A stretch of DNA of 64,000 nt from Minisyncoccota bacterium (GCA_023229825.1 JALNYN010000007.1:2596-66595); one strand, 5' to 3'; shown: positions 17,101 to 62,473, numbered from the stretch's first letter. Translations and numbers: made by a program. Notes: a model not told the origin generated them from the letters alone.

Positions 17101-17756
17101 AATCTGAGGAAGTATGTTATACCGCTTTCTGGACCAACGTCCACAAACGGATACCATGGCGTACGCTCACGGGTCGCCAGCAATTCTATCAAGATCACGC
17201 ATGGATGATCGCGTTCGGTGAAGGTTTCGCGGTATACAAACCGCCGATCGACACGAAAACGATCGAGTCTGTGCTGGGATTTTCCAAGAATGGAAATAAA
17301 GAAATAGTTTTGAATTGGATCACCCCGCATCAAAAATGGGGAATTCACTCGAACTTTTCCGATAACCTGAGAATGCTGACGCTCTCGCGCGGAGGTCCGA
17401 ATGCATGGATTTCCGAAGATGATGCAAAAGAGGCGGGTATCGTCGATAACGATTGGATCGAGATATGGAATGAAAACGGTACGCTCGCGGTTCGCGCGGT
17501 TTTAAGCCAGCGCGTTCCTCGGGGAATGATCCTTATGTATCACGCTCAGGAAAAGAACGTGAATATGCCGCAAGCGGAGATGAGCGGAAAACGAGGAGGG
17601 ATACACAACAGCGTCACTCGCACGGTCGTGAAGCCGACGCACATGATCGGCGGCTACGCGCAGCTTTCTTACGGTTTCAATTATTACGGAACCGTCGGAT
17701 CGAATCGCGATGAGTTCGTCATCGTGCGCAAAATGAAACAAGACGTAAAATGGTAA
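14118..17756 (+). CDS. narG: respiratory nitrate reductase alpha subunit
   Basis: 1212 aa. N-terminal HGVNCTGSCSW cluster motif. Molybdopterin oxidoreductase family. AGGAGA RBS. Confidence 0.95.
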   Translation: MKRTLDKLSRLFGKTSNEHEVVTEESRDWERLYRDRLGVQKTVRSTHGVNCTGSCSWEIQVKNGLVIGEVQKTDYPRTRPGLPNHEPRGCPRGASASWYLYSAARLKHPLARGALVRIWREARKTLDPVSAWASIVEDPEKTKSYKTKRGMGGFVRLTWDEAMEIIAAANIYTIKKYGPDRVVGFSPIPAMSMASYSGGTRYLSLIGGANLSFYDWYCDLPPSSPQVWGEQTDVPESADWYNSKYILVWGSNVPQTRTPDAHFLSESRYNGTKSVVVSSDYSEAVKFADLWMHPKQGHDAALAMAMGHVILNEYHSKNRSLYFSEYCKAYTDMPLLVALEEKDGTFQAGRFLRASDFDQTMKEEKSEWKTVLINERTGNIAVPNGSIGFRWDESGKWNLLSEEITPRLSLLGTEDETVKVSMPYFGGDESENILLRSVPVKKFFLNGKEVLAATVYDLLLANYGVSRDPDVTEESYNEVAPYTPAWAEKHCGVSKELIIKVAREFAENADKTLGRSMIILGAAINHWYHSDMTYRGIMNMLMMCGCVGQSGGGWAHYVGQEKLRPQTGWAPLAFATDWSRPPRQMNGTSFFYTHSDQWRFEKLKVSEILSPLADTSLGNSHLYDWNTRAIRMGWLPTLPALDVNSLEIAKKADRAGISPSEYVVSGLKDGTIRFACEDPDKEENYPRNLFLWRSNLLGSSGKGHEYLLKYLLGTQSAVLGNESKDMKPTDSEWREDPPEGKLDLFVVLDFRKSTSVLYADIALPSATWYEKDDMNTSDMHPFIHPLQAAVDPLFESKTDWEIFRSVAKKFAELTEGNLGVEKDVVLTPLLHDSPGELGQPFGEVKDWKKGECEPVPGKTMPNITVVERDYPNTYKKFTSVGPLLSKLGNGGKGISWNTEKEVDGLKAINGCVEEEGVSKGMPKIESAVQACEMILEFAPETNGAVAVRSWEALEKITGLSLADLAKPREADKIRFKDIVVQPRKIISSPIWSGIESEEVCYTAFWTNVHKRIPWRTLTGRQQFYQDHAWMIAFGEGFAVYKPPIDTKTIESVLGFSKNGNKEIVLNWITPHQKWGIHSNFSDNLRMLTLSRGGPNAWISEDDAKEAGIVDNDWIEIWNENGTLAVRAVLSQRVPRGMILMYHAQEKNVNMPQAEMSGKRGGIHNSVTRTVVKPTHMIGGYAQLSYGFNYYGTVGSNRDEFVIVRKMKQDVKW

Positions 17757-17811
17757 AACAAATCGCGTCCGGCGGCAGCGTCGGACGCCACTCTGAACAA
17801 AGGAGGCAACT

Positions 17812-19341
17812 ATGAAGATCAGAGCGCAAATTGCCATGGTTTTGAATCTCGACAAATGCATCGGCTGCCACACCTGTTCCGTCGTCTGCAAGAATTTGTG
17901 GACATCGCGGAAAGGCGCCGAGTACCAATGGTGGAACAATGTCGAAACGAAACCGGGCACGGGATTTCCCACGAATTGGGAAGACCAAGAAAAATTTCAA
18001 GGAGGATGGGTTCTCAACAAAGCGGGAAAACTGGAATTGAAACAAGGCGCGAAACTTAAACTTCTCGCCAATATCTTTGATAATCCGAATATGCCAAGCC
18101 TGGCGGAGGACTATTATGATCCGTTCACTTTCGATTATGATTATTTGGAAACTGCTCCGGAAGGTCTCACGACCCCGCCGACGGCGAAACCGCGGTCGGT
18201 AGTCACGGGCGAACCGATGAAAAAGATCGAAAAAGGTCCGAACTGGGAAGATGATCTCGGAGGAGAATTTGAAAAACGAGGAAAAGATAAAAACTTTGAA
18301 GGTATTCAAAAAGAGATGCATTCTTTATTTGAAACCACCTTCATGGCGTATCTGCCTCGGCTTTGCGAACATTGTCTTAATCCCTCGTGCGTCGCTTCGT
18401 GCCCAACGGGTTCGATCTACAAACGCGCGGAAGACGGCATTGTTCTCATCGATCAGGACAAATGCCGAGGCTGGCGCATGTGCGTTTCGGGGTGTCCTTA
18501 TAAAAAGATATTCTTTAACTGGGATACGAAAAAATCCGAAAAGTGCGTTTTCTGTTTTCCTCGGATCGAGGCGGGTCTTCCGACCTTGTGTTCGGAATCC
18601 TGCGTAGGACGTATTCGATATCTTGGCGTTATTCTTTATGATGCCGATCGTATCGAAGAAGCCGCCAGCGCCGCGAACGAGCAAGACCTGTACGAAGAAC
18701 AGCTGAAAATATTCCTTGATCCGCACGATGGCAACATTGCGCGCATTGCGGAAGAACAAGGCATTCCTCCGTCTTGGATCGAAGCGGCGAGAAGATCGCC
18801 CGTCTATAAAATGGCGGTCGAGTGGAAGATCGCGTTTCCTCTCCACCCCGAGTGGAGAACGATGCCCATGGTATGGTATGTACCGCCGCTTTCTCCGATC
18901 ACGTCGGCCGCGGAAAATGGGCTTATCGCAAAAAAAGGATTTTTCCCCGATATAGAATCGCTTCGAATTCCGGTGAGATATCTCGCCAATCTGTTAACGG
19001 CGGGAAGTGAGGCTCCTATTGTGCTGGCGTTGAAACGTTTGATCGCGATGCGGGAATACCGGCGCGAAAAAACGCTGAACAGCGAAGAAAAGAGCGAATT
19101 TTTGCGGGAGGCCGGACTGACGGAAAAGCAAGCCGAAGAAATGTACCGATATCTCGGTATCGCAGACTATGAAGATCGGTTCGTCATTCCGACGAGCCAT
19201 AAAGAATATGCTCTGAATGCTTTTGATGAAAAGGGCGCGTGCGGGTTCACTTCCGGAAACGGTTGTGCGCACGGCGAAACTCCTTCATTGGAAGACCTTT
19301 CGGTCCGCTTGGGTCATCGAAAGAAAAAAATGGAGATATGA
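17812..19341 (+). CDS. narH: respiratory nitrate reductase beta subunit
   Basis: 509 aa with four Cys clusters (CIGCHTCSVVC ...). AGGAGG RBS. Confidence 0.95.
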   Translation: MKIRAQIAMVLNLDKCIGCHTCSVVCKNLWTSRKGAEYQWWNNVETKPGTGFPTNWEDQEKFQGGWVLNKAGKLELKQGAKLKLLANIFDNPNMPSLAEDYYDPFTFDYDYLETAPEGLTTPPTAKPRSVVTGEPMKKIEKGPNWEDDLGGEFEKRGKDKNFEGIQKEMHSLFETTFMAYLPRLCEHCLNPSCVASCPTGSIYKRAEDGIVLIDQDKCRGWRMCVSGCPYKKIFFNWDTKKSEKCVFCFPRIEAGLPTLCSESCVGRIRYLGVILYDADRIEEAASAANEQDLYEEQLKIFLDPHDGNIARIAEEQGIPPSWIEAARRSPVYKMAVEWKIAFPLHPEWRTMPMVWYVPPLSPITSAAENGLIAKKGFFPDIESLRIPVRYLANLLTAGSEAPIVLALKRLIAMREYRREKTLNSEEKSEFLREAGLTEKQAEEMYRYLGIADYEDRFVIPTSHKEYALNAFDEKGACGFTSGNGCAHGETPSLEDLSVRLGHRKKKMEI

Positions 19342-19342
19342 A

Positions 19343-19873
19343 ATGAAAACTTATCTTATTCTCTCGCTTCTTCTCGAATATCCGAGCGCGGAATGCGTCG
19401 AAAACATCGGAGGTCTTGAAGATATCCTCCACGAAGAAGCTGATGAAAACAAAGGGGCGGCGGAAGTGCTTGCCCCGCTCTTTGAGAAATTAAAGGCGGA
19501 ACCTTTGCTTTCTCTTGAAATGCATTACACTGATACTTTTGAACAGGGAAGAGGCAATTCGCTTTTTCTCTATGAACATCTGTACGGCGAGGATGCCGCG
19601 CGAGGACTGGCGCTTTCCGATCTTCTGGAGAAGTACGCTTCGCACGATTTCGTCGCGCAAAGCGGAGAGCTGCCGGATTTTGTTCCGGACGTCTTGGAAT
19701 ATCTTTCCGTTCTTTCAAAAGAAGAAGCGGAAGAAATTCTGGGAAGGACGATACACTTGTTTGCCGTTATAAAGAATAATCTCATGAAGAGGGAAAGCGC
19801 ATACGCAGCAGTATTTGAAGTACTGGAGAGTATGTCGCCGATCGCTCCGCAACCACTGGAGGCCTTGCTATGA
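19343..19873 (+). CDS. narJ: nitrate reductase delta subunit / molybdenum cofactor assembly chaperone
   Basis: The ATG at 19343 is 1 nt after the narH stop, with GGAG upstream. TorD/NarJ-like, about 177 aa. The track ORF upstream extension is not needed. Confidence 0.8.
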   Translation: MKTYLILSLLLEYPSAECVENIGGLEDILHEEADENKGAAEVLAPLFEKLKAEPLLSLEMHYTDTFEQGRGNSLFLYEHLYGEDAARGLALSDLLEKYASHDFVAQSGELPDFVPDVLEYLSVLSKEEAEEILGRTIHLFAVIKNNLMKRESAYAAVFEVLESMSPIAPQPLEALL

Positions 19874-20562
19874 ATTATTTTCTTTTCGGCATTTATCCGT
19901 ATATCGCACTCGCCATCTGCATCGTGGGATGCCGGTATCGCTACCGTCATTATCCTGAAAGCTGGAAGGCGAGTTCAGATATGTTTCTCGAAACCGACCG
20001 GCTGCATCGGCTCAGCTTAAGGATCCTCCATTGGGGCATTTTCTTGCTCCTCGGCGGACACGTAGTCGGACTGTTAACTCCGCATGAGATATACGAGCCC
20101 TTTATTTCCATCGCTCACAAGCAAATGCTGGCGATGGTCGGAGGAGGCGTATTTGGAGGAATGGTTCTCGTAGGCCTTTCGCTTTTGCTTTTTCGAAGAA
20201 TATATTTTCTGAGAGTTCGCAGAACGAGCGTGCCGATGGATTATGTAGTTCTCGTTTCGCTTTTACTAAGCGTTATGACAGGACTCGCAACCATTCCCGT
20301 TTCAGCCGGTCATCCTCATGGAGACGTTATGATCGCACTCTCAAGCTGGGCGCAGAATATAGTCACCTTTCAGCCGGGCGCTGCCGATCTGGTCGCCGGT
20401 GTTCCGTTGATCTACAAGATCCATATCTTTATTGGAATGACAACGCTCTTTACGCTTTTGCCGTTCGGACGGCTGATACATGCAATAAGCGGTGTTGCCG
20501 CCATTGCGGTCTATCCGTTCCGTCCTTGGCAGGTCGTTCGTCTCTTGAGGTGGCGAAAATAG
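19870..20562 (+). CDS. narI: respiratory nitrate reductase gamma subunit (cytochrome b)
   Basis: 230 aa, 5 TM, conserved His ligands. Overlaps the narJ stop (ATGA). Confidence 0.9.
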   Translation: MNYFLFGIYPYIALAICIVGCRYRYRHYPESWKASSDMFLETDRLHRLSLRILHWGIFLLLGGHVVGLLTPHEIYEPFISIAHKQMLAMVGGGVFGGMVLVGLSLLLFRRIYFLRVRRTSVPMDYVVLVSLLLSVMTGLATIPVSAGHPHGDVMIALSSWAQNIVTFQPGAADLVAGVPLIYKIHIFIGMTTLFTLLPFGRLIHAISGVAAIAVYPFRPWQVVRLLRWRK

Positions 20563-43817: not shown

Positions 43818-45209
43818 TTATCCTCTTAAAGTTTTCAATACTTCCTGCATGGTTGCATTGGCATCGCCAAAGAGCATTCTGGTATTTTCCAATACGAACA
43901 GGGGATTACCCACGCCCGCATAGCCTGTCGCCATGCTGCGTTTCAGAACGATCGTGGTTCCGCCTTTCCAACATTCGAGCACCGGCATTCCGGCGATCGG
44001 GCTGTTTGGGTCATTGAGAGCCGAAGGGTTCACGATGTCGTTCGCTCCGATGACGATCGAAACATCGACATCGCCCCAATCATCATTGATCTCGTCCATC
44101 TCGTACACGATGTCGTACGGCACTTTCGCTTCCGCGAGCAGCACGTTCATATGTCCGGGCATCCTTCCCGCAACCGGGTGAATGCCGAATCCGACTTTTT
44201 TGCCTTTATCGCGCAAAAGTTTCGTGATCTCGTAGACCGTATGCTGAGCTTGCGCCACCGCCATTCCGTAGCCGGGAATGATCATGATGCTTTTTGCTTC
44301 GAGCAGCAATTGCGCGGTGTCTCCGGCAGAAACGCTTTGCACTTCGCCTTCGATCTCCGCCGCTTTTCCTCCGGTCGAACCGAAGCCCCCGGCTATTACG
44401 CTGATAAAGTGGCGGTTCATCGCACGGCACATGATGTAACTCAATATCGCGCCGCTTGATCCGACCAATGCACCGGTAACGATCAGAAGATCATTGCCGA
44501 GCATAAAACCGGTCGCTGCCGCCGCCCATCCCGAATAGCTGTTAAGCATCGAGATAACCACCGGCATATCCGCGCCGCCTATCGCCATGACCATATGCAC
44601 GCCGAGTACGAGCGCGATCGCGGTCATAATAAGCAGAACAACAAATCCTCCGTCGCTCTCAGCTTGTTCCAAAAACAACCAACCGAGGAAAACGGTCAGA
44701 ACGACCATTCCCAAATTCAGCCAATGACGAGCGGGAAGCGTTAAAGGTTTTCCGCCGATCCGTTCGCTCAGTTTTCCGAACGCAATGACCGAACCGGAAA
44801 AAGTAACGGCACCGATAAAAATGCCCAAATAAATTTCCAGTTCGTGGATCGTTTTTTCCGCGCCCGAAAGGCTCGCGGAATTATCCATGAAAGTGGCATA
44901 GGCCACGAGCACGGCTGCGAGACCGACCAAGCTGTGCATGATCGCGACGAGTTCCGGCATTTGCGTCATTTCGACCTTCAATGCGGCTCTTGTTCCGATC
45001 AATCCGCCGACAGCAAGCGCGGCGATCAAAACGCCATACGAGCTGACGGAAGCGCTGAACGCGGTCGCCGTAACAGCGATCGCCATGCCGATCATTCCGT
45101 AATAATTTCCTTTGCGCGCCGTTTCCTGACTGCTTAAACCGCTCAGGCTTAAGATGAAAAGAATGAAGGCGACAATGTATGATATGACAACTAAATTTTG
45201 CGACATCAT
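43818..45209 (-). CDS. pntB: NAD(P) transhydrogenase subunit beta
   Basis: 463 aa. N-terminal TM bundle plus C-terminal dIII NADP(H)-binding domain. AGGAG RBS. Confidence 0.9.
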
Positions 45210-45218
45210 CTTCTCCTC

Positions 45219-46778
45219 TTATTTCTTGAACATTTGGAGCATGCGGCGAGTGACCAAAAAGCCACCGAAAATATTGATCGCCGCTAAGAATATCCCCGCA
45301 CCCGCAAGAACGGCGACGGGAAGACTTAGACTCGATACCTGTATGATCGCACCGATGACAATAATACTGCTGATGGCGTTCGTCACGCTCATGAGCGGCG
45401 TATGCAGCGAATGCGAAACATTCCAGATAACCTGATAGCCCACAAAGCACGCAAGCACGAACACCGTAAAGTGCGTCATGAATGATGCCGGAGCATACAG
45501 CCCCAGTCCGTACATCGCAAGACCTGCGACCGCGTACGGCAGTAATGTTTTCAATACTTTTCGGAAGACAGAAGGTTTCTTCTCAGGTTTTTCCTCGGAA
45601 GGTTTCTTCTCGTCCGGTTTTGGAGTGACGCTGATCGTCGGAGGGGGAGGCGGCCAGGTGATCTTTCCTTCTTTTATAACCGTGGTTCCTCGTATGACCT
45701 CATCTTCCATATTGACGTTGATCTCTCCTTTTTTCTCGGGAGTGAGCTCGGTCAATAAATGCCGCAAGTTGGTCGCATACAATTGGCTTGATTGATTCGC
45801 GAGACGGCTCGGCAAGTTGCTGTAACCGATGATCGTTACGCCGTGTTTTACGACGACGGCATCTTTCTCGGTCAATTCGCAATTTCCGCCCTGTTCCGCG
45901 GCTAAGTCCACGACTATGCTGCCTTGGCGCATGGTGCGCACCATTTCTTCGGTGATGAGCTTCGGTGCCGGTTTTCCCGGAATAAGCGCAGTAGTGATGA
46001 TGATATCAACCTCTTTCGCTTGCTTGGCGAAAAGCGCCATCTCAGCTTCAATGAATTCTTTGGACATGGTTTTTGCATAACCGCCCGTGCCCGAACCTTC
46101 TTCTTTGAAGTCGAGCATCAAGAATTCCGCGTCCATGCTTTCTATCTGTTCTTTCACTTCCGGTCTCGTGTCGAATGATCTGACGATCGCGCCCATGCTT
46201 TTTGCCGCGCCGATCGCAGCCAACCCGGCCACGCCCGCGCCGATCACCAAAACTTTTGCCGGCGGAATTTTTCCCGCGGCGGTAATTTGCCCGGTAAAAA
46301 ATCGTCCGAAATGCTGCGCCGCTTCGACGACCGCACGATAACCGGCAATGTTCGCCATCGAGCTCAGAGCATCAAGCTTCTGCGCTCTCGAAATACGCGG
46401 AACGCTGTCCATCGCAAGTACCGTAACATGTTTCGCCGAAAGTTTCGCCATCAGGTCCGGATTTTGCGCCGGCCATATAAAGCTGATCAAACAGCGGCCG
46501 TCTACTAAAAGTTCCGTTTCGTCGAGCCCGAGTTCCGGATGATGTTCCGGCGCTCTGACTTTCATGACGATATCCGATCCGCTCCACAGAGCTTTCGCAT
46601 CGGCCACGATCGCAACGCCCGCTTTTTCATAATCCGCATCGGAAATATCCGCGCCCGTTCCGGCACCGCTCTCAAGCAATACCGAAAAGCCAAGCTTGAT
46701 CAGCTGCCCAGCCGATTCCGGCGTAAGTGCCACGCGTTTTTCATCAATATGAACCTCTCTAGGTACGCCAATTTTCAT
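45219..46778 (-). CDS. pntA: NAD(P) transhydrogenase subunit alpha (dI plus membrane dII part)
   Basis: ATG at 46778 with GGAGG gives MKIGVPREVHIDEKRVALTPE. Ala-dehydrogenase-like dI, Pro/Lys-rich linker, 4 C-terminal TM segments. Confidence 0.9.
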   Translation of the reverse strand: MKIGVPREVHIDEKRVALTPESAGQLIKLGFSVLLESGAGTGADISDADYEKAGVAIVADAKALWSGSDIVMKVRAPEHHPELGLDETELLVDGRCLISFIWPAQNPDLMAKLSAKHVTVLAMDSVPRISRAQKLDALSSMANIAGYRAVVEAAQHFGRFFTGQITAAGKIPPAKVLVIGAGVAGLAAIGAAKSMGAIVRSFDTRPEVKEQIESMDAEFLMLDFKEEGSGTGGYAKTMSKEFIEAEMALFAKQAKEVDIIITTALIPGKPAPKLITEEMVRTMRQGSIVVDLAAEQGGNCELTEKDAVVVKHGVTIIGYSNLPSRLANQSSQLYATNLRHLLTELTPEKKGEINVNMEDEVIRGTTVIKEGKITWPPPPPTISVTPKPDEKKPSEEKPEKKPSVFRKVLKTLLPYAVAGLAMYGLGLYAPASFMTHFTVFVLACFVGYQVIWNVSHSLHTPLMSVTNAISSIIVIGAIIQVSSLSLPVAVLAGAGIFLAAINIFGGFLVTRRMLQMFKK

Positions 46779-46804
46779 GTACAACCTCCAATAAAATTTT
46801 GAAT

Positions 46805-46945
46805 TCGTCGTCATTCGTCGTCACATTTTGTCGTCATTCGTCGTCATTTTGTCGTCATTCTGAACTAGATTCAGAATCCACGTCCGTAGTCGTTCGCCGT
46901 CGTTCGTCGTCATTCCGGACTCGATCCGGAATCCACGTTCGTCGT
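46805..46945. repeat. degenerate cluster of TCGTCGTCATTC tandem motifs plus two GTCATTC...GAATCCACG units
   Basis: tcgtcgtcattcgtcgtcacattttgtcgtcattcgtcgtcattttgtcgtcattctgaactagattcagaatccacg ... gtcattccggactcgatccggaatccacg. Confidence 0.7.
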
Positions 46946-48393: not shown

Positions 48394-48445
48394 GTAATAA
48401 AGGGGACAGCCACCATTGTTTGTTAAAATATGTGTTGTAATTTAT
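48394..48445. repeat. REP-like repeat, direct copy of the left flank of the RAYT gene
   Basis: aataaaggggacagccaccattgtttgttaaaatatgtgttgtaat versus 51937-51992. Confidence 0.75.
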
Positions 48446-51936: not shown

Positions 51937-52714
51937 GAATAAAGGGGACAGTCACCATTGTTTTATAAAAAATATGTTGTAATATATAAGATATGCCAAG
52001 AAACGCAAGAACAGATGTCGGCGGTGAGATCTATCACGTCATCAACCGAGCAAACGGTCGCATGGTGATCTTTAATACTCCGGAGGATTATCTTCTATTC
52101 GAAAATCTTTTGTTTGATACAAAAGAACTGACTGGAATGAGGATCCTCGCTTACACCATTATGCCGAATCATTGGCACTTTATTCTACATCCGCAAAAAG
52201 ATGGGGACCTTGGTATATTTATGCATCGTCTTTCAAATGCGCATACACGAAAAGTTCACGCACTAACAAACACTAATGGGACAGGCCATCTCTACCAGGG
52301 TCGCTACAAATCTTTTCTCGTTGATTCCGACAGTTATTTTCTCACACTTTTGAAATATGTCGAAAGAAATCCGGTCAGATCAAAGACGGTAGAACATTGC
52401 GAAGATTGGCAATGGGGAAGCGCATGGCGGAGAATAAACGGTTCAAAAGCGGAAAAAAAGTTGATCGATCCGCCGATCGTGGAACTTCCTCATGGATACA
52501 AAAAATGGATAAATACACCGGATAAGGAAGATGACCTCGCTGTCATCCGCACTTCTGTAAACAAAAGCGTGCCGTTCGGAAGAGATAAATGGGTGGATCA
52601 AATGGTGACAAAGTTTCATCTTGAATCAACGCAAAAAAAACAGGGCAGACCGAAGAAAAGATAAACATTAGAACACGTGAAATGCAAAACAATGGTGGCT
52701 GTCCCCTTTATTGG
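51937..52714. mobile_element. REP-associated tyrosine transposase (RAYT) unit: Y1 HUH transposase gene flanked by inverted REP-like repeats
   Basis: Left flank aataaaggggacagtcaccattgtttt (51937-51964), right flank aaaacaatggtggctgtcccctttatt (52688-52714), in inverted orientation around the gene. Confidence 0.7.
51993..52664 (+). CDS. IS200-like HUH Y1 transposase, REP-associated (RAYT / TnpA_REP) type
   Basis: YHVINRANGRMVIF, HUH motif HWHFIL, catalytic-Tyr region YQGRYKSFLV. 223 aa. Confidence 0.8.
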   Translation: MPRNARTDVGGEIYHVINRANGRMVIFNTPEDYLLFENLLFDTKELTGMRILAYTIMPNHWHFILHPQKDGDLGIFMHRLSNAHTRKVHALTNTNGTGHLYQGRYKSFLVDSDSYFLTLLKYVERNPVRSKTVEHCEDWQWGSAWRRINGSKAEKKLIDPPIVELPHGYKKWINTPDKEDDLAVIRTSVNKSVPFGRDKWVDQMVTKFHLESTQKKQGRPKKR

Positions 52715-56121: not shown

Positions 56122-56191
56122 ATCGGCGGACGCTCTTTCTTGAAAAAGTGTCGTAATTTATTCTTAACGTTCATTGCGTTTTTTCTTTTGG

Positions 56192-56213
56192 CTTCGAGCT
56201 TGGGACGATATTC
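56192..56213 (+). repeat. partial copy of the CGAGC(N)TGGGACGAT repeat motif (motif A)
   Basis: cttcgagcttgggacgatattc. Fuller copies at 57472 and 60954. Confidence 0.5.
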
Positions 56214-56279
56214 AAAATGTATTAATTAAAAACGACCATCGGAGTTGGATCCGACAGTCGTTTACTTTTTGGAAAATTA

Positions 56280-57269: not shown

Positions 57270-57475
57270 CCTGAGGAATTTCTCGGCTTACCGCCGCAGT
57301 ACCCCTTTCCGATTTGTTCACAGCGACCACGCCGCTCACAAATATCGGAGAAGGGTGGAGTTTATACTCCGTAGCGCAGCGGAGGGGTGAATCCTACCTC
57401 GCGAGTGACGCAGGTCACTCGCTCGCGGAGCAAATGAAAAAACACCCGATCAAAGGTGTTTTCTCATTTGCTTCG
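57270..57475 (+). ncRNA. structured ~200-nt repeat element, copy 1 (homologous to 61558-61740); candidate ncRNA or tRNA-end-derived mobile remnant
   Basis: Shares blocks aggaatttctc, gcagtacccctttccgatttgttc, ctcacaaata.cggagaagg, gaatcctacc.cgcgag and ctcgctcgcggagcaa with copy 2. The internal hairpin tgac-gcag-gtca versus acaa-gcag-ttgt shows compensatory changes. Ends in a 17-bp hairpin gcaaatga.aaaacacc. Confidence 0.5.
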
Positions 57476-57510
57476 AGCATGGGACGATGTTCGGCAAGCG
57501 ATTATTGAGG
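57472..57510 (+). repeat. motif A repeat (ttcgagcatgggacgatgttcggcaagcgattattgagga)
   Basis: Near-identical to 60954-60992. Confidence 0.6.
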
Positions 57511-57589
57511 AAGGAGAGTAAATTCTGGCTTGCGAGATATCCACATTTTACTTTCCCGTGTTTTCTTTTTTTTTGTGTATAATTACTTT

Positions 57590-58816
57590 ATGAAAGAAAA
57601 ACTCTCGCGAATTCGTAAACACCCGAAGACACCGGGTTTTTTAACAGCACTTCTTTTTACTGGTGTTACGGTAGCCACTCTTCATAACATCCCCAAACCC
57701 CCGCTTTTCCCAAATACCGATAATTTCGTCATCTTCGCCGAACAATCGTTTACTTTTGAAGATGAAGCGTCGGTTTCAAGTGGAGATATCGGAACGAACG
57801 GCAATCTTGATATCGGAAAAGATACAACAGTAAACGGCAATATTTTCGCCAACAAAATCACTATCGCAAAAAATACGACGATAAACGGCAATGCAAATTA
57901 CAACAAACTTTCCAACAAAGGAGAAATTCTCGGTACGAAAACAACACCTGTATCACTGCCGATTGCTAATCTTCCCCCAATTTCCAATTTCACCATCGGA
58001 ACGCAAGACAAAATATTCACCGGAAATGTAAACACACTACCACCAGGAAATTACAAGAATATCACTCTACAAAAAGATTCCACCCTCACTCTTTCCGGCG
58101 GAACTTACAACCTGAACATCCTCGACCTCAAAGAACATTCCACCCTCATTTTCACCGCACCAACCACGCTCAATATCCAATTCAAACTTCGCGGACGAGA
58201 TGCTGTTTCAATTTTAAACGGAGCAAATGTAAAACCAACCGATTTGCACATTAATTATATCGGGATACGGAATGAACAAAAGAGCAATAAAACAATGGAA
58301 CAGGATGACGAAGACGAAGTAATGGCGTTTCTTGATAAACAAGAAAAAGCAGACTGCAAAAACCAGAAAATCGGGAGACCGATACTTTTCGGCAAAAACT
58401 CGTTTCTCAATTTTACACTGATTGCGCCGAAAGCGAATGTGAACATTGAAAGAGATTCTACGCTGCGAGGGCAGATGTTGGCGAGGAAGATAAGAGTGAG
58501 GAACGGGGTAAGTTTAAGTAAAAATGAGTTTTTTTCTAAAAATGCCGATCCAAAAAAAGTAGTTGGCGATACTGGTGCACGATTTATCGTTAATGAGGTT
58601 GTTATACGATTGACCGCGGAAGCATCTTTGGGAGACATCCAACAGGTCGTTGGTACAGTAAATGGAAAAATAACGGGATTTCTTGATATTTTGGGGATGG
58701 TAAAAATAGAAATTCCAGCCAAAACGGTTGCAGAATTGAATCTGTCGGTTGATAAATTAAAAGCGTTACATAGTCCATACATTCAAGATGTTATGATTAA
58801 TTTTGTTTATAATTAG
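57590..58816 (+). CDS. secreted/anchored protein with bactofilin-like (polymer-forming) beta-helix repeats
   Basis: The ATG at 57590 gives a signal-anchor. GDIGTNGNLDIGKDTTVNGNIFANKITIAKNTTINGNANYN repeat pattern. The C-terminal ~90 aa is loosely propeptide (I9)-like. Confidence 0.55.
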   Translation: MKEKLSRIRKHPKTPGFLTALLFTGVTVATLHNIPKPPLFPNTDNFVIFAEQSFTFEDEASVSSGDIGTNGNLDIGKDTTVNGNIFANKITIAKNTTINGNANYNKLSNKGEILGTKTTPVSLPIANLPPISNFTIGTQDKIFTGNVNTLPPGNYKNITLQKDSTLTLSGGTYNLNILDLKEHSTLIFTAPTTLNIQFKLRGRDAVSILNGANVKPTDLHINYIGIRNEQKSNKTMEQDDEDEVMAFLDKQEKADCKNQKIGRPILFGKNSFLNFTLIAPKANVNIERDSTLRGQMLARKIRVRNGVSLSKNEFFSKNADPKKVVGDTGARFIVNEVVIRLTAEASLGDIQQVVGTVNGKITGFLDILGMVKIEIPAKTVAELNLSVDKLKALHSPYIQDVMINFVYN

Positions 58817-58819
58817 TGT

Positions 58820-59137
58820 ATGAAAAAATTTGCAAATGTCTCCGGATTTTATCTGGCATTGTCTGTTGTGGCTCCGATCGTTCTTCTTCCGATGCTTTTA
58901 CTCTCTATGTCCGGATTTTTTGATGGTGTTTTTGGGTCAAATATTGAAGTTGTAACCGGTTGTATTATTGTTCTTTCAGTAATAACATTGCCGTCAGTGG
59001 GTTTTTATTTAAAAGAAAAATTTAAAAATGAAAATGAGCAGTTGCAAAATATAAAAAAAGGTCTTCGGTATAATATAATCTTTATTATTATTTTATTACT
59101 TATATCTTATTCGATTTTTGGCGCACATTTAGATTGA
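58820..59137 (+). CDS. small membrane protein, hypothetical
   Basis: 105 aa, 3 TM. Confidence 0.45.
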   Translation: MKKFANVSGFYLALSVVAPIVLLPMLLLSMSGFFDGVFGSNIEVVTGCIIVLSVITLPSVGFYLKEKFKNENEQLQNIKKGLRYNIIFIIILLLISYSIFGAHLD

Positions 59138-59142
59138 TTATT

Positions 59143-60849
59143 ATGAAACAAAAAACACGTTACAAATATACGATTCTTTTGGTGTTTTTTCTTCTTTTTA
59201 CGCAAGCAAACGCCGAAGAAAACTTTTCCATTGACTTTTTAAATCTGGTACAGACAAATAGTATTTTTTTTGAACCGTTGAATAAAATAAAAATGAAGGA
59301 AACTTGGGGAAAAATGAATCTTACCACGCCTATTCGGTTTGTAAAAATTGGGATAATTGATTCTGGTTTGGATGCATCTGGAGAAAGGCATCCGGAATTC
59401 CGCGGAGTAGATTTGGGAAATACTCCAAACGATGCCAAAGTCGATACCGAACCATCAGATATTCCAGGCGCCACAGCAGGTCACGGGACACAAATTGCAG
59501 GCATTATCGGAGCCAACAATATATCGGCCAGTGGAGTTGATTTTTACGAACACCCTCAAATGAACGGAATTTTAAGTGGTGTAAAGAATTTAAATTATAC
59601 TTTGGAAATACGAAGGCCCACTTTTGCTTCGGTGTTCACAACAGATGCATGGTCGGTATTTGCAGAAATAAACAAACTTGAAAGCGAAGGGGTGGATATT
59701 ATAAATATAAGTAGCGGTTCTCCGTATTTGCCAGGCATTCATGATATTTGGTATATACCAACCTTTACGATGTTAAACAAAACCTTGTTCGTTGTATCCG
59801 CTGGTAATGATGACAGATCAGCAGAACTACAGATACCAGCAAATTATGGTGATAATTTTAATAATGTAATAACCGTCGGGTCAACAATTTTTGATGATAC
59901 GAGATTGAGTTACGGTAATTACGGAAGCGCGGTAAGTATTTCCGCACCGGGGTTAGGTCTTTACTCTCCATCACCGAGAGGAAAAGGTGATTATCCAACA
60001 GAGGTTCCAGGAATAAAAAATTATGATACCAATTTCTCCGGCACCTCCGCCTCCGCCCCTCTCGTCACCGGTGTCGCGGGACTTTTAAAAGCAATCAAAC
60101 CCTCGCTCACCCCCGCGCAAATCAAACAAATCCTCATTCGCACCGCCGACCCGATACAAACAGGGGAAACTGACAAGCGTCTCGGCGTGGGTTGTTATTT
60201 AAACCCAAACGACACGTTAAAAACCGGCTGTCGTTTAAACGCCTACCGCGCCGTCTGCGATTCGGAAGTCGGACTCAATTGCGCACCTTCCGTCATTGCC
60301 GTCAGCGATGCGACCACCATGGTAGGAACATCACCCGCCGTCCCCCTTTCTTTTATTCATCCGTCATGGTCCGCCGACCTCGACGGAGGACACGACCCGC
60401 TTCGAAACGACGGCACGTTCGATGGTTCAAAATGGATATGGGCAACTGACGGTCCAACTGATCCAACGGTTGCCGAAATCTTCACTTTTGAAAAAACATT
60501 TACAGTAAACAATCCCGTCTCTACTTCCACTTTGTATTTTGCCGTAGACGATAGCGCGACCGTCCGTCTAAATGGAAACAACATCCCCGTATCGTCCGGT
60601 AACAGTTACTCCGCCTCAACCGAAGGAGTATACGTTGTTCCGGCAAGTAATTTTGTTCTCGGGCAAAACGTTCTTTCTGTCACGGCGACAAATTATGCGG
60701 GCGGGTATGACCCGCAAGCAAATCCCGCCGGAATTCTTTTTAAACTCGTTGAGGGAACACCCGCGAGTGAAGCATTTTCCGCTTCGGCAAAATCATTGAT
60801 GTCGAATGTTGGCGCTCTTACTGTCAGTACCGATCTTTCCGGTGAATGA
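59143..60849 (+). CDS. secreted S8 (subtilisin-family) serine peptidase with C-terminal extension
   Basis: The track start is TTG; the ATG is at 59143. Signal peptide. Asp (IIDSGLD), His (HGTQIAG) and Ser (GTSASAPLVTG) catalytic motifs. Confidence 0.8.
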   Translation: MKQKTRYKYTILLVFFLLFTQANAEENFSIDFLNLVQTNSIFFEPLNKIKMKETWGKMNLTTPIRFVKIGIIDSGLDASGERHPEFRGVDLGNTPNDAKVDTEPSDIPGATAGHGTQIAGIIGANNISASGVDFYEHPQMNGILSGVKNLNYTLEIRRPTFASVFTTDAWSVFAEINKLESEGVDIINISSGSPYLPGIHDIWYIPTFTMLNKTLFVVSAGNDDRSAELQIPANYGDNFNNVITVGSTIFDDTRLSYGNYGSAVSISAPGLGLYSPSPRGKGDYPTEVPGIKNYDTNFSGTSASAPLVTGVAGLLKAIKPSLTPAQIKQILIRTADPIQTGETDKRLGVGCYLNPNDTLKTGCRLNAYRAVCDSEVGLNCAPSVIAVSDATTMVGTSPAVPLSFIHPSWSADLDGGHDPLRNDGTFDGSKWIWATDGPTDPTVAEIFTFEKTFTVNNPVSTSTLYFAVDDSATVRLNGNNIPVSSGNSYSASTEGVYVVPASNFVLGQNVLSVTATNYAGGYDPQANPAGILFKLVEGTPASEAFSASAKSLMSNVGALTVSTDLSGE

Positions 60850-60909
60850 GAAGGGAACAAAGGAATGAGGTGACCACATCTTTCAATTAGGTTCGATATT
60901 TCTAAAAGA

Positions 60910-60992
60910 TAGTACAAAAATTACCCCTATAAATAAGGGTATTTTTGACTGTTCCGAGCCTGGGACGATGTTCGGCAAGCGATAATAGAGGA
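60910..60992 (+). repeat. composite repeat: motif B (tagtacaaaaattacccctataaataagggtattttt hairpin) followed by motif A
   Basis: B at 60910-60946, A at 60954-60992. B recurs at 61516-61550. Confidence 0.6.
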
Positions 60993-61055
60993 ATAAAAAA
61001 GAAAAAGCCGAGGGAGGGTTTACAACCTCACTCGGCAGAACAATTATGTGTCTAT

Positions 61056-61400
61056 TTAGGACAAGAAAATGATCTTGGGTTTTTTGATTTGTTCAATCTC
61101 ACTTCCAATGACTTCTGTGCCTCCGAATATCCGCTTTATTCGTTTGTTAAGTTGCTTTAGAGATATCTGATTGATTAGAGTGGTAACCGGAAGCCCGGCC
61201 CATTCTTTTGGAATTTTGGCCGCGTTGTTCTGGGTCAATACACCAAGTCCCACGATCTCCGTCTTGACTAATCCAATGGCGATATATGAAATTCCTGACC
61301 CTTCAAGATATTCTTTCAGATGGTCGCGGTCTTTCAAAAGTTCTTCTATTGTTTTCGGTAGAAGATTTGTTGTTTCGTTCTCTTTTTCTATGTTATTCAT
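61056..61400 (-). CDS. hypothetical protein flanked by motif-A and motif-B repeats
   Basis: 114 aa. ATG at 61400. No recognised family. Confidence 0.4.
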   Translation of the reverse strand: MNNIEKENETTNLLPKTIEELLKDRDHLKEYLEGSGISYIAIGLVKTEIVGLGVLTQNNAAKIPKEWAGLPVTTLINQISLKQLNKRIKRIFGGTEVIGSEIEQIKKPKIIFLS

Positions 61401-61497
61401 TCTATTTTTCTCCTTTCAAAGTCTATGGTGCAAATATTTTTTTATAGGCACTCCACACTTGTTTATATCATTAAATATAAAGTAAGTCAAGTTGCGC

Positions 61498-61550
61498 TCC
61501 GAGCTTCGCAAAAGGTAGTACAAAAATACCCCTATAAAAAGGGTATTTTG
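61498..61550 (+). repeat. partial motif A plus motif B repeat
   Basis: ccgagct ... tagtacaaaaatacccctataaaaagggtattttg. Confidence 0.55.
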
Positions 61551-61557
61551 TTTGGCT

Positions 61558-61740
61558 CCGCAGGTAGGAATTTCTCTCCTTACTGGAGCAGTACACCTTT
61601 CCGATTTGTTCGGATTGCTATCCTCACAAATAGCGGAGAAGGTTTTCGAATCCTACCGCGCGAGACAAGCAGTTGTCTCGCTCGCGGAGCAATACAAAAA
61701 AGACACTTTATATAAAGTGTCTTTTTTGTATTGCTCCGCG
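61558..61740 (+). ncRNA. structured repeat element copy 2, abutting the tRNA-Asn 3' end; terminates in a 28-bp perfect palindrome
   Basis: Homologous to 57270-57475. Contains ggttttcgaatcctaccgcgcgag, which mimics the tRNA-Asn T-arm plus acceptor in the opposite orientation. A direct repeat of the tRNA 3' end (tcctacctgcggagcc, minus sense) lies at 61551-61567. The palindrome at 61683-61740 overlaps the tRNA acceptor 3' strand. Confidence 0.5.
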
Positions 61741-61771
61741 GGTAGGATTCGAACCTACGACCAATCGGTTA

Positions 61772-62359
61772 CACTTGTCCTTGTGTTACCACTAGGGGTG
61801 GACTATATCATCTCCTTGTTTGTCTTGCGACAAGTTTAGGAGTGGGGCGCTTCGGGCTGAAATGTTTTTTAAAATATTCCAGGCCTACTCCCTTGCGGGA
61901 TAGTCTCTGAACCTTTCCTGCTTCGCTAAAGCTTCACAGGACTTGGCTGCTGATTGCCCCTCAATTACTCTCGGGGTTTCCAGCAATTCACCTCATTTTT
62001 CAACCTAAGTTTCCTTAGGAAGCTGCGTGAGACCATCGTGCACTTCCATGTGACAGTTTGCGCACAAGAGAACGCATTTCGCGATCTCCTTTTGAATTTT
62101 TTCCCACGATTTCGTGAGCCCTCTAGCCGACAACCCAAAATCTTTTTTCTTTGGATCTCGGTGATGAAAACTCAATGCCCGAGGGCATTTATCGTAACCG
62201 CAGATTGCACACTTATCACCTTTATATTTGCGTGCCATTTCTCGAAGCTTTTTACGGCGTTCAGAAACAGCCTTTTTCAAATACTCTGCACGATCGGCAT
62301 AAGTTCTTGTTTCTGGCATATACATCGTAGTATACCATAGAAAAACTTATTACGTGTCC
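61772..62359 (-). mobile_element. group I intron (about 588 nt) with internal HNH endonuclease ORF
   Basis: Conserved core elements on the minus strand in canonical order: P AATTGCTGGAAA (61988-61977), Q AATCAGCAGCC (61955-61945), R GGTTCAGAGACTATCCCGC (61913-61895), S GATGATATAGTCCAC (~61812-61798). The 5' exon ends in U and the intron ends in G. Confidence 0.7.
62005..62325 (-). CDS. HNH homing-type endonuclease (intron-encoded)
   Basis: 106 aa. CAICGY...HHRDP...N...LLCANCH HNH/His-Me finger motif. Located between the 5' splice site and the P element of the intron. Confidence 0.75.
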   Translation of the reverse strand: MYMPETRTYADRAEYLKKAVSERRKKLREMARKYKGDKCAICGYDKCPRALSFHHRDPKKKDFGLSARGLTKSWEKIQKEIAKCVLLCANCHMEVHDGLTQLPKET

Positions 62360-62473
62360 ACAGCCGATTGCTCTACCGCTGAGCTACCGCGGAATGTTGT
62401 GTAGCTCTTTGTGCTTTTTGGCACTTTTTGATAATAGCAAAAAAACTCCCGAAATGCAACGAACTGGAGGGAT

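Follow-up and report, generated by a model that had tools for sequence, protein, structure and literature searches.

Why does one stretch of bacterial DNA carry, at two places close together, a structured repeat that ends in a long hairpin and contains pieces of a tRNA gene? The question is raised by a 64,000-nt sequence from a Minisyncoccota bacterium (GCA_023229825.1, JALNYN010000007.1:2596-66595), which as a whole is called the window here. A sequence-only reading had described two copies and had offered two explanations, a small non-autonomous element that duplicates tRNA 3' ends (a MITE or an att-site remnant) or an unrecognised ncRNA family. The two copies are real and lie on the same strand (about 57270-57475 and 61555-61740), and their blocks lie in a common order. 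In particular, a repeat finder pairs 57274-57319 with 61566-61611 (block D4, 87% identity), 57335-57354 with 61623-61642 (D15, 95%) and 57389-57445 with 61648-61704 (D3, 81%). One 24-nt block has two exact matches in the 64 kb, where 0 are expected by chance, and a second block, of 16 nt, also occurs exactly twice. A covariance model built from relatives elsewhere finds 61563-61657 with 89.5 bits and 57271-57371 with 34.8 bits, and no third place in the window. Compared with shuffled sequence, the folding of both copies is far more stable (z = -6.8 for copy 1 and -11.2 for copy 2). When strain variants of the locus were looked for, the contigs that matched were all 100% identical.

Searches for known RNAs return little from this DNA. 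Rfam 15 at its gathering threshold reports only a group I intron in the window, and relaxing the search to E values up to 10 adds only spurious miRNA and sRNA matches to the long palindrome, all far below threshold; the earlier judgement that the repeat is not tmRNA, 6S, SRP or RNase P RNA is thus upheld. ARAGORN calls neither a tRNA nor a tmRNA in the window, and it misses the tRNA-Asn adjoining copy 2 owing to a group I intron of 588 nt, with an HNH ORF, that interrupts the gene. The parts of this gene are as follows.

61734-62393, minus strand: tRNA-Asn(GUU) gene (Rfam RF00028, Pfam HNH, exons read in the sequence)
62393-62360, minus strand: 5' exon
62359-61772, minus strand: group I intron, between U35 and U36 (Rfam RF00028, 89.5 bits)
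62005-62325: HNH ORF inside the intron (Pfam)
61771-61734, minus strand: 3' exon

Intron-less orthologues of this gene are called as tRNA-Asn by ARAGORN. The intron HNH protein has 737 homologues, the named ones coming from Kaiserbacteria, Nomurabacteria and Paceibacterota, which assigns the window to the Patescibacteria, and contigs reached through these homologues carry the same element directly behind tRNA-Asn in other organisms (loci L021 and L018).

The two window copies can be divided into the following parts.

61555-61569, plus strand: copy 2, 5' arm, a direct repeat (14/15) of the tRNA-Asn 3' end in the plus-strand reading
61570-61651, plus strand: copy 2, core (model match of 89.5 bits, fold, covariation of hairpins A and B)
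61652-61691, plus strand: copy 2, 3' arm, an inverted copy of the tRNA end (sequence, repeat D3)
61683-61740, no strand: perfect palindrome of 29+29 nt without a spacer (repeat finder I1, 100% complementary)
57271-57432, plus strand: copy 1 (model match of 34.8 bits, alignment, fold)
57426-57475, no strand: copy 1, terminal hairpin with 21-nt arms, 90% complementary (I4)

The 5' arm of copy 2 reads as the complement of the 3' strands of the acceptor and T stems together with the discriminator. It is one half of a direct repeat (61555-61569 against 61733-61747; 14/15; GCTCCGC[A/G]GGTAGGA) of the tRNA end that had been recognised before and exists, about 3 nt from where it had been placed. The core then consists of AATTTCT, hairpin A (61576-61588, loop TTACT), the junction CAGTACA, hairpin B (61595-61642), which has bulges on its 3' strand, and the T-loop-like TTTTCGAAT. 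The 3' arm follows with CCTACC (T-stem 3' strand), hairpin C (61660-61681, loop GCAG) and CGCGGAGCA (acceptor 3' strand and discriminator). Hairpin C is the internal hairpin whose differences between the copies had been called compensatory, and they are: GCGAGTGAC-GCAG-GTCACTCGC at 57401-57422 corresponds to GCGAGACAA-GCAG-TTGTCTCGC at 61660-61681. A further compensatory hairpin, CGGC-TTACC-GCCG in one copy and CTCC-TTACT-GGAG in the other, had been overlooked. The tRNA-like stretch, described earlier as a T-arm joined to an acceptor strand of tRNA-Asn, is real; its order, however, is T-loop and T-stem 3' strand, an inserted hairpin, and then the acceptor 3' strand CGCGGAGCA, so that a hairpin intervenes between the T-stem and acceptor strands. 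The terminal hairpins, once given as perfect over 17 bp and 28 bp, also needed correction: that of copy 2 is perfect, with arms of 29 nt rather than 28, whereas that of copy 1 has 21-nt arms that are 90% complementary. The outer 9 nt on either side of the copy 2 palindrome are the acceptor end of the tRNA and its complement, and the palindrome is a bidirectional terminator common to copy 2 and the tRNA. Copy 1 is an older, degraded unit. Its 5' arm has shrunk to ..TGAGGA, its core retains hairpins A and B, it carries an additional 34-nt insertion (57355-57388), and the remainder is GAATCCTACC, hairpin C (57401-57422) and CGCGGAGCA (57424-57432).

Copies of the element occur well beyond this locus. 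Sequence comparison places the window pair as local members of a large family of hairpin-forming DNA elements, 110-190 bp long, directly behind tRNA genes of Patescibacteria (CPR bacteria); they look like small insertion elements without cargo, which mark those tRNA ends that serve as hot spots of integration. Of 29 matches to a three-block pattern in a genome scan, 5 are real members (in Nomurabacteria, Paceibacterota and other CPR MAGs); a less tRNA-specific pattern gave 88 stretches in one metagenome scan; and the core covariance model, R1, has 117 matches in 95 fetched loci, often 2-6 per locus. The hosts are Paceibacteria and related Patescibacteria, and the element is specific to tRNA 3' ends. 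Three scans of the IMG/VR viral collection returned nothing relevant: 14 matches to a 16-mer were discarded, all being chance matches within coding DNA. A match at 9574-9587 of L020 was likewise discarded as a chance occurrence inside a gene. No account of such elements was found in the literature searched, and the family is apparently undescribed.

The pattern and model scans yield a large family at tRNA 3' ends rather than two isolated copies. Among 71 distinct units, the ARAGORN calls for the neighbouring tRNA comprise Tyr (18), Ser (10), Asn (6), Trp (4), Val (4), Ile (2) and Arg (1). Every one of them lies on the opposite strand immediately behind the unit, i.e., convergent with it, and the distance from the unit end to the tRNA is about 44 nt. 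The 26 units without a tRNA call are each explained by an intron-split tRNA-Asn, an island junction or a contig end. The mimicry of tRNA-Asn seen in the window is a special case, because each unit copies its own neighbour tRNA, across seven amino-acid types.

A unit and its surroundings have a fixed layout: a direct copy of the tRNA end, the core, an inverted copy of the tRNA end, a palindromic terminator of ~44 nt, and the real tRNA end. The 5' arm is a direct repeat, in the antisense reading, of the final ~15 nt of the tRNA gene beside it, and the flanking direct repeat consists of perfect runs, typically of 14-17 nt, that end at the tRNA terminus. When 44 units are compared with their tRNAs, the 5' arm is 100% identical over the first 7 nt; identity is then ~80% up to and including the discriminator, and 43% at two nt outside the tRNA. 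Complementarity of the 3' arm is 89-100% and then 75-86%. The 5' arm fuses the acceptor 5' strand straight onto the T-stem 5' strand, and the 3' arm runs from TTCGAATCC through the remaining T-stem 3' strand and, usually, hairpin C to the acceptor 3' strand. Pairing between the arms extends over 15 bp (median). Between them the core has the order AATTTCT, hairpin A (4 bp, loop YTACA), CAGTAY, a long hairpin B with 3'-strand bulges, and TTTTCGAAT. The spacer between unit and tRNA is a symmetric palindrome of an A-run, a GC stem-loop and a T-run, as in a bidirectional terminator; since it is symmetric and the 3' arm is inverted, 3' arm, spacer and tRNA end make one long palindrome.

Several simple identities for such a unit were considered and set aside. 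It is not a tRNA gene or pseudogene, given that ARAGORN makes no call at either window copy and that the acceptor 5' strand is joined directly to the T-stem 5' strand. Core lengths range from 80 to 103 nt and do not change in steps of three; a coding role was rejected because the core length is not a multiple of three and the overlapping ORFs are mechanical. A primer-binding site was rejected as a general explanation, since a complement of the CCA end is present only in window copy 2 and in L136.

The direct, inverted, direct order of the three tRNA-end copies could also be the product of template switching, during replication, at the T-arm and terminator hairpins, with the resulting triplication kept as a bidirectional terminator or insulator and homogenised by gene conversion. 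Its junctions would fall at the T-loop (TTCGAA, a palindrome) and in the terminator loop, the copy 2 palindrome is perfect and lacks a spacer, no recombinase has been found, and the flanks are housekeeping genes in conserved synteny, all of which would suit such an origin. However, independent switches would not make a homologous core of 75-100 nt with conserved loops at the T-loop junction of at least 7 tRNA types. Cores common to loci with unrelated arms and the presence of tandem arrays of units also speak against it, and template switching is judged to be a rather improbable source of the family. The same low probability attaches to the insulator, which would sit between a highly transcribed tRNA and its convergent neighbour.

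The arrays and the cores themselves indicate how the family behaves. Beside a single tRNA there may be three units in tandem (L135 and L139) or up to six matches (L126), and the distal units of an array are usually weaker or truncated; the window offers a parallel, with 89.5 bits for the proximal copy 2 and 34.8 bits for the distal copy 1. In 30 of 58 units the closest core is found at a different tRNA type. For example, L099, with Asn arms, and L137, with Ser arms, have cores that are 96% identical and arms that are unrelated, and hairpin C types are also common to different tRNA types. Since cores do not track the tRNA type while arms do, the core appears to be exchanged between loci and the arms are always local. 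It may be observed that gene conversion among resident copies, together with local conversion from the adjacent tRNA, could yield shared cores without transposition.

A search for an enzyme that might move these units gave no candidate. No recurring recombinase, integrase, transposase or relaxase is present within 4 kb of units, whose flanks are housekeeping genes in conserved synteny, and the 64-kb window contains no tyrosine recombinase and no other recombinase or transposase apart from an unrelated RAYT-like gene. (Conserved synteny of the flanks suits a stable resident feature as well as an old insertion.) The RAYT-like gene (51993-52664; Pfam Y1_Tnp; NF047646, 65.9 bits) encodes a Y1 transposase 5 kb upstream, and it raises the idea that the units are REP/REPIN-type elements moved by this protein. 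REPs have a layout of GTAG plus a hairpin, which CAGTAY and a bulged hairpin superficially recall. The gene is, however, flanked by inverted 20-mers of its own that are unrelated to the units (51941-51960 and 52690-52709; a further copy lies at 48399), units elsewhere have no recurring Y1 transposase in their vicinity, and REPs lack target-derived arms; this origin is scarcely credible. Like MITEs and REPINs in general, the element is short, non-coding, multi-copy, hairpin-forming and non-autonomous. In contrast to them, its terminal inverted repeats are target-derived and vary by locus, its placement is strictly at tRNA 3' ends, its repeat extends over 14-17 nt to the tRNA terminus rather than being a short duplication of fixed length, and no cognate transposase has been found.

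Folding of a single strand of the element is under selection. In the core alignment, 90.2% of cells are paired, compared with 73.9% after shuffling; the covariation score is 0.362 compared with 0.095 in the shuffles, a value reached by 0 of 500 of them, and the signal collapses when the partners are slid out of register as a control. Hairpin A alone appears with at least 11 different Watson-Crick stems. The earlier argument for selection on secondary structure, which had relied on one hairpin, is therefore strengthened, as covariation reaches beyond it to hairpins A and B.

Whether the folded strand is RNA or DNA was addressed by counting G-U against A-C mismatches in helices that had been called with a scoring that treats the two alike. 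The counts, which make a weaker test if most mismatches sit in decaying units, are 6:2 in hairpin A, 28:27 in B, 6:13 in C and 35:34 in the arms, for a total of 75 versus 76. In a control on tRNAs from these loci, the acceptor and T stems have 56 G-U and 6 A-C. An asymmetric count had hinted at an excess of G-U, a bias that vanishes under symmetric scoring. Choosing the strand by folding energy was also rejected: the opposite strand appeared better by a mean of 2.5 kcal/mol, an artefact of asymmetric scoring. Since G-T and A-C are equally disfavoured in the stems, pairing seems to matter in single-stranded or extruded DNA. The element would then act as DNA and not RNA, the missing G-U bias being the one pointer to a single-stranded state.

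These counts bear on the second of the two earlier proposals, a structured ncRNA made from the element strand. In such an RNA the paired ends would form the acceptor stem of the neighbour tRNA stacked on its T stem, a 'minihelix', with the T-loop opened by hairpins A and B. It would be a possible substrate of RNase P and of 3'-processing enzymes, and could serve as a mimic, decoy or regulator for tRNA-specific factors. Much of the anatomy fits: the 5' arm is an acceptor 5' strand fused to a T-stem 5' strand; the 3' arm has UUCGAAU and the 3' strands of the T and acceptor stems, with the discriminator; similarity to the tRNA ceases at the mature 3' end; and unpaired motifs are conserved while stems covary. 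In addition, about half of the units have a downstream palindrome with a T-run on the element strand, one position of hairpin B has a recurrent U-G on that strand (12/68), and both window copies fold strongly. Against this reading, neither strand prefers G-U to A-C, whereas the tRNA stems of these loci have a ratio of 9:1. No promoter-like site was found upstream of either window copy, and a consensus search of 68 members, for a group (CPR) whose promoters are poorly known, found no -10 or -35 element at a fixed distance; instead, the 5' arm is usually abutted upstream by a terminator tail. The acceptor-like part is kept less well, with CUCGGCGAGACA and a G-A mismatch in the Tyr lineage, the distal units of arrays decay, and Rfam has no match, with tmRNA, YrlA and T-box included. 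The ncRNA proposal is weakened by the lack of a G-U excess on either strand and of a promoter signal, and is now regarded as unlikely. On paper, the element strand does resemble the tRNA-like domain of tmRNA or YrlA in having an acceptor stem on a T stem, UUCGAAU and a discriminator, i.e., the 'top half' of a tRNA. Those RNAs, however, mimic one fixed shape, have promoters and G-U pairs, and are not located beside the tRNA they resemble, whereas the T-loop of the element is opened by two hairpins and its helices are without G-U enrichment.

The best reading of these findings, which is put forward tentatively and at somewhat less than an even chance, is that of a non-autonomous DNA element whose folded single strands rebuild a duplex copy of the tRNA gene end. 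In a single-stranded form the two arms would pair to give this duplex, which would be a folded mimic of an att site by analogy with integron attC and with CTX-phage attP(+). A recombinase supplied in trans, or strand exchange linked to replication, would join the fold to the tRNA gene end. More exactly, a folded circle consisting of arm, core, inverted arm and spacer would exchange a single strand with that end. The order predicted from single-strand exchange is distal repeat, core, inverted arm, terminator or cargo, and tRNA, which is the order seen; for integron attC and CTX-phage attP(+) such an exchange is an established principle. An intact tRNA with its own terminator would be regenerated, making the site reusable, and repeated use would build arrays in which the newest unit is next to the tRNA. 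A process of this kind would account for the target-matching inverted arm, the DNA-like pairing, the conserved bulges, the regenerated tRNA and terminator, the arrays and the absence of an encoded enzyme. By itself it leaves unexplained how the arms come to be rewritten at a new tRNA, as does simple site-specific integration, and neither an enzyme nor a circular form was seen. A broader formulation is possible but more doubtful, namely that the family is a class of tRNA-templated elements with a mobile core of ~80-100 nt at the T-loop position and both arms written from the local tRNA; its members would be either folded single-stranded DNA sites that hijack tRNA-gene recombinases or RNAs that mimic the acceptor/T-stem minihelix of one tRNA.

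Both of the systems named above share much with the folded DNA element. The attC sites of integrons are imperfect inverted repeats that fold in single-stranded DNA, with the pairing kept while the stem sequence varies, and they have bulged bases on one strand, as has hairpin B on its 3' strand. Integron cassettes, too, accumulate in arrays beside a fixed primary site, the newest being proximal, and some units are without cargo. In contrast to integrons, the primary site of the element is a tRNA gene 3' end and not attI, the stems copy the target itself, the unit ends are tRNA-derived, neither the R''/R' core (RYYYAAC / GTTRRRY) nor an integron integrase has been found, and the units bear a terminator for the tRNA. 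The attP(+) site of CTX phage, an IMEX that exploits XerCD, comes close in another way: two inverted copies resembling the host site, ~90 nt apart, pair to mimic the duplex host site, single-strand exchange predicts the order distal repeat, loop, inverted arm, cargo and host site, and the recombinase is not encoded by the element. Unlike it, the present element targets a tRNA gene end rather than dif, and is only about 0.15-0.2 kb long, without phage genes.

If the units are folded-DNA recombination substrates, they would extend the attC/CTX principle to tRNA targets and to the tiny genomes of Patescibacteria; if RNA, they would be the first family of locus-specific tRNA minihelix mimics; and a tRNA-templated element of either kind would add a new layer to tRNA-gene biology in CPR bacteria. 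The 3' ends of tRNA genes are classic landing sites for prophages and genomic islands, and the tRNA genes examined in these loci carry a conserved hairpin module with spare direct and inverted copies of the landing site. Folded-DNA substrates would also account for cassette-like hot spots such as that of the window, where the DNA between the two copies is occupied by the following features.

57469-57512, plus strand: D2 junction, left end of island 1, inserted after GCTTCG (repeat finder D2)
about 57476-60957: island 1, with bactofilin-like, membrane-protein and S8 peptidase genes (Pfam)
60903-60947, no strand: right-end hairpin module of island 1, AAAAGATAGTACAAAAATTACCCCTATAAATAAGGGTATTTTTG (D5, D11, D14, I5)
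60950-60993, plus strand: second D2 junction, left end of island 2, 89% identical to 57469-57512
about 60958-61553: island 2, with a 114-aa ORF on the minus strand
61509-61548, no strand: right-end hairpin module of island 2, directly upstream of the copy 2 5' arm (D5, D11, D14, I5)

The two window islands thus have like ends, D2 on the left and the hairpin module on the right. D2, which recurs at 57469-57512 and 60950-60993 and weakly at 56190-56233, opens with ~6 nt from the start of the tRNA end (GCTYCG) and continues as AGCNTGGGACGATGTTCGG. It was considered as a decayed tRNA half and is better regarded as a cargo-island junction with its crossover ~6 nt inside the tRNA end. Junctions of the D2 type lie behind units in many loci (e.g., L045, L099, L126 and L117). 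In L045 the junction delimits an island of 0.77 kb that separates the unit from an intact tRNA-Asn, and in L117 the island it delimits is prophage-like, with ParB-methylase and terminase genes.

That prophage-like and serine-recombinase islands occupy the same tRNA ends, and that a direct repeat of the tRNA 3' end flanks each unit, would be expected if the units were ordinary att remnants of decayed prophages or integrative elements that once resided in the tRNA gene. Yet all 87 of 87 pattern-defined units are complete and compact, without prophage-sized DNA between core and 3' arm, covarying stems are not expected of neutral remnants, and the viral collection has no match. True island junctions (the D2 type and the LSR type, GGAGCC|AAGTAGGAC) are unlike the unit ends, and their crossover lies elsewhere in the tRNA end. 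A remnant of this sort is highly improbable. The non-autonomous element that duplicates tRNA 3' ends is supported in outline by the placement at tRNA ends, the 14-17-nt flanking repeats and the arrays; the labels MITE and att remnant, which the sequence-only reading had attached to it, do not suit units with target-matched arms, a core shared among unrelated arms and no splitting by prophage-sized DNA, and the comparison gave no match to a known IS or integrase end. CIMEs likewise have flanking direct repeats that are the tRNA 3' end, lack an integrase of their own and accrete in tandem at a regenerated tRNA site. They are, however, kilobases long and visibly derived from ICEs or IMEs, whereas no unit lies inside a larger element, and they are without an inverted target copy, covarying hairpins or a core common to different tRNA targets.

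The most economical history of the window would begin with copy 1 as an old unit, followed by the later entry of two cargo islands at tRNA-end sequence, with copy 2 as the newest arrival. Comparison with the island junctions identifies the end of the 3' strand of the copy 1 terminal hairpin, GCTTCG, as the opening 6 nt of a tRNA-end copy that once stood there. Pairs of empty and filled sites were found for cargo islands only and not for the element itself. In practical terms, tRNA-like fragments and long palindromes can break assemblies and mislead predictors of tRNAs, att sites and islands in CPR genomes, and the covariance model from this analysis is usable for genome-wide surveys. Mobility or exchange at these tRNA ends is also indicated by L045 and L058, which are 100% identical on the tRNA side and wholly different at the hot spot.

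A recurrent junction motif, GCTYCG followed by AGCNTGGGAYGATGTTCGG, is found at the left ends of the two cargo islands that lie between copies 1 and 2 of the tRNA-end element (the repeat D2); AGCNTGGGAYGATGTTCGG is itself an inverted repeat, CCGARC..GTTCGG. This motif marks the left boundary of cargo islands or prophages whose insertion points lie some 6 nt into the 3' ends of tRNAs. Among the contigs fetched from other genomes and metagenomes, it is present in L045 (1801-1840), L099, L117, L126, L130, and L132; the island in L117 carries genes for a ParB-methylase and for subunits of a terminase. The right end of each small island in the window has a copy of a hairpin module of about 45 nt, AAAGRTAGTACAAAAAT(T)ACCCCTATAAA..GGGTATTTT, which together with D2 would constitute the circular junction of the two small islands. 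The features of this region are as follows:

56190-56233, junction motif, weak
57355-57388, 34-nt insertion in copy 1, between hairpin B and GAATCC
57469-57512 and 60950-60993, junction motif
60903-60947 and 61509-61548, right-end hairpin modules
61734-62393, minus strand, tRNA-Asn(GUU) gene with a group I intron
62005-62325, HNH endonuclease ORF, inside this intron

The 588-nt intron interrupts the anticodon of tRNA-Asn(GUU) at U35/U36, and because it splits the gene, ARAGORN called zero tRNAs in the entire window. Homologues of the HNH protein are common across Paceibacteria (737 matches, 70-86% identity). In contig L018, the HNH gene is located outside the intron and is oriented divergently from the tRNA.

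Islands of large serine recombinases directly adjoin the extreme end of tRNA-Asn in other strains, with junctions of the form GGAGCC|AAGTAGGAC or GGAGCA|AGGTAGGAAC (L019, ~550; L020, 6597-8300; L023/L025). L018 and L019 have the same HNH protein, yet are not alike in this use of the tRNA-Asn end. These islands are a third, distinct mode of exploiting the tRNA-Asn end.

The element itself varies. The insertion in copy 1 (GTGGAGTTTATACTCCGTAGCGCAGCGGAGGGGT) folds into a small hairpin of its own and includes GTAGCGCAGCGG, which resembles a tRNA D-arm. In some arrays, truncated units are joined head to tail, with the fusion point either within hairpin A or at the copy of the T-stem (L058, 766-830, oriented; L135, 6620-6870), as in ..GCAG|GTAGGAATTTCG..; these fusions suggest recombination between units at short common motifs. 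A shorter variant lies beside tRNA-Asn in L027 (3518-3720). In this variant the tRNA end recurs as a perfect direct repeat of 19 nt, and an inverted copy resembling a T-arm is also present; it lacks hairpin C and is not matched by R1, the covariance model of the core, and could be distantly related to the family.

Further loci of the window are as follows:

51993-52664, RAYT-like Y1 transposase gene (65.9 bits against NF047646, short of the cut-off of 80)
14118-20562 and 43818-46814, respiratory nitrate reductase operon and transhydrogenase genes pntAB

Inverted copies of AAAGGGGACAGYCACCATTG stand on both sides of the RAYT-like gene (51941-51960 and 52690-52709), with a third copy 3.5 kb upstream (48399-48418). 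Gene and repeats constitute a REP-like system that is separate from, and unrelated to, the tRNA-end element. The nitrate reductase operon is complete (narG, narH, narJ, and narI), and with pntAB and the several histidine kinases that accompany them in the window, it represents an uncommon respiratory repertoire for a Patescibacteria genome.
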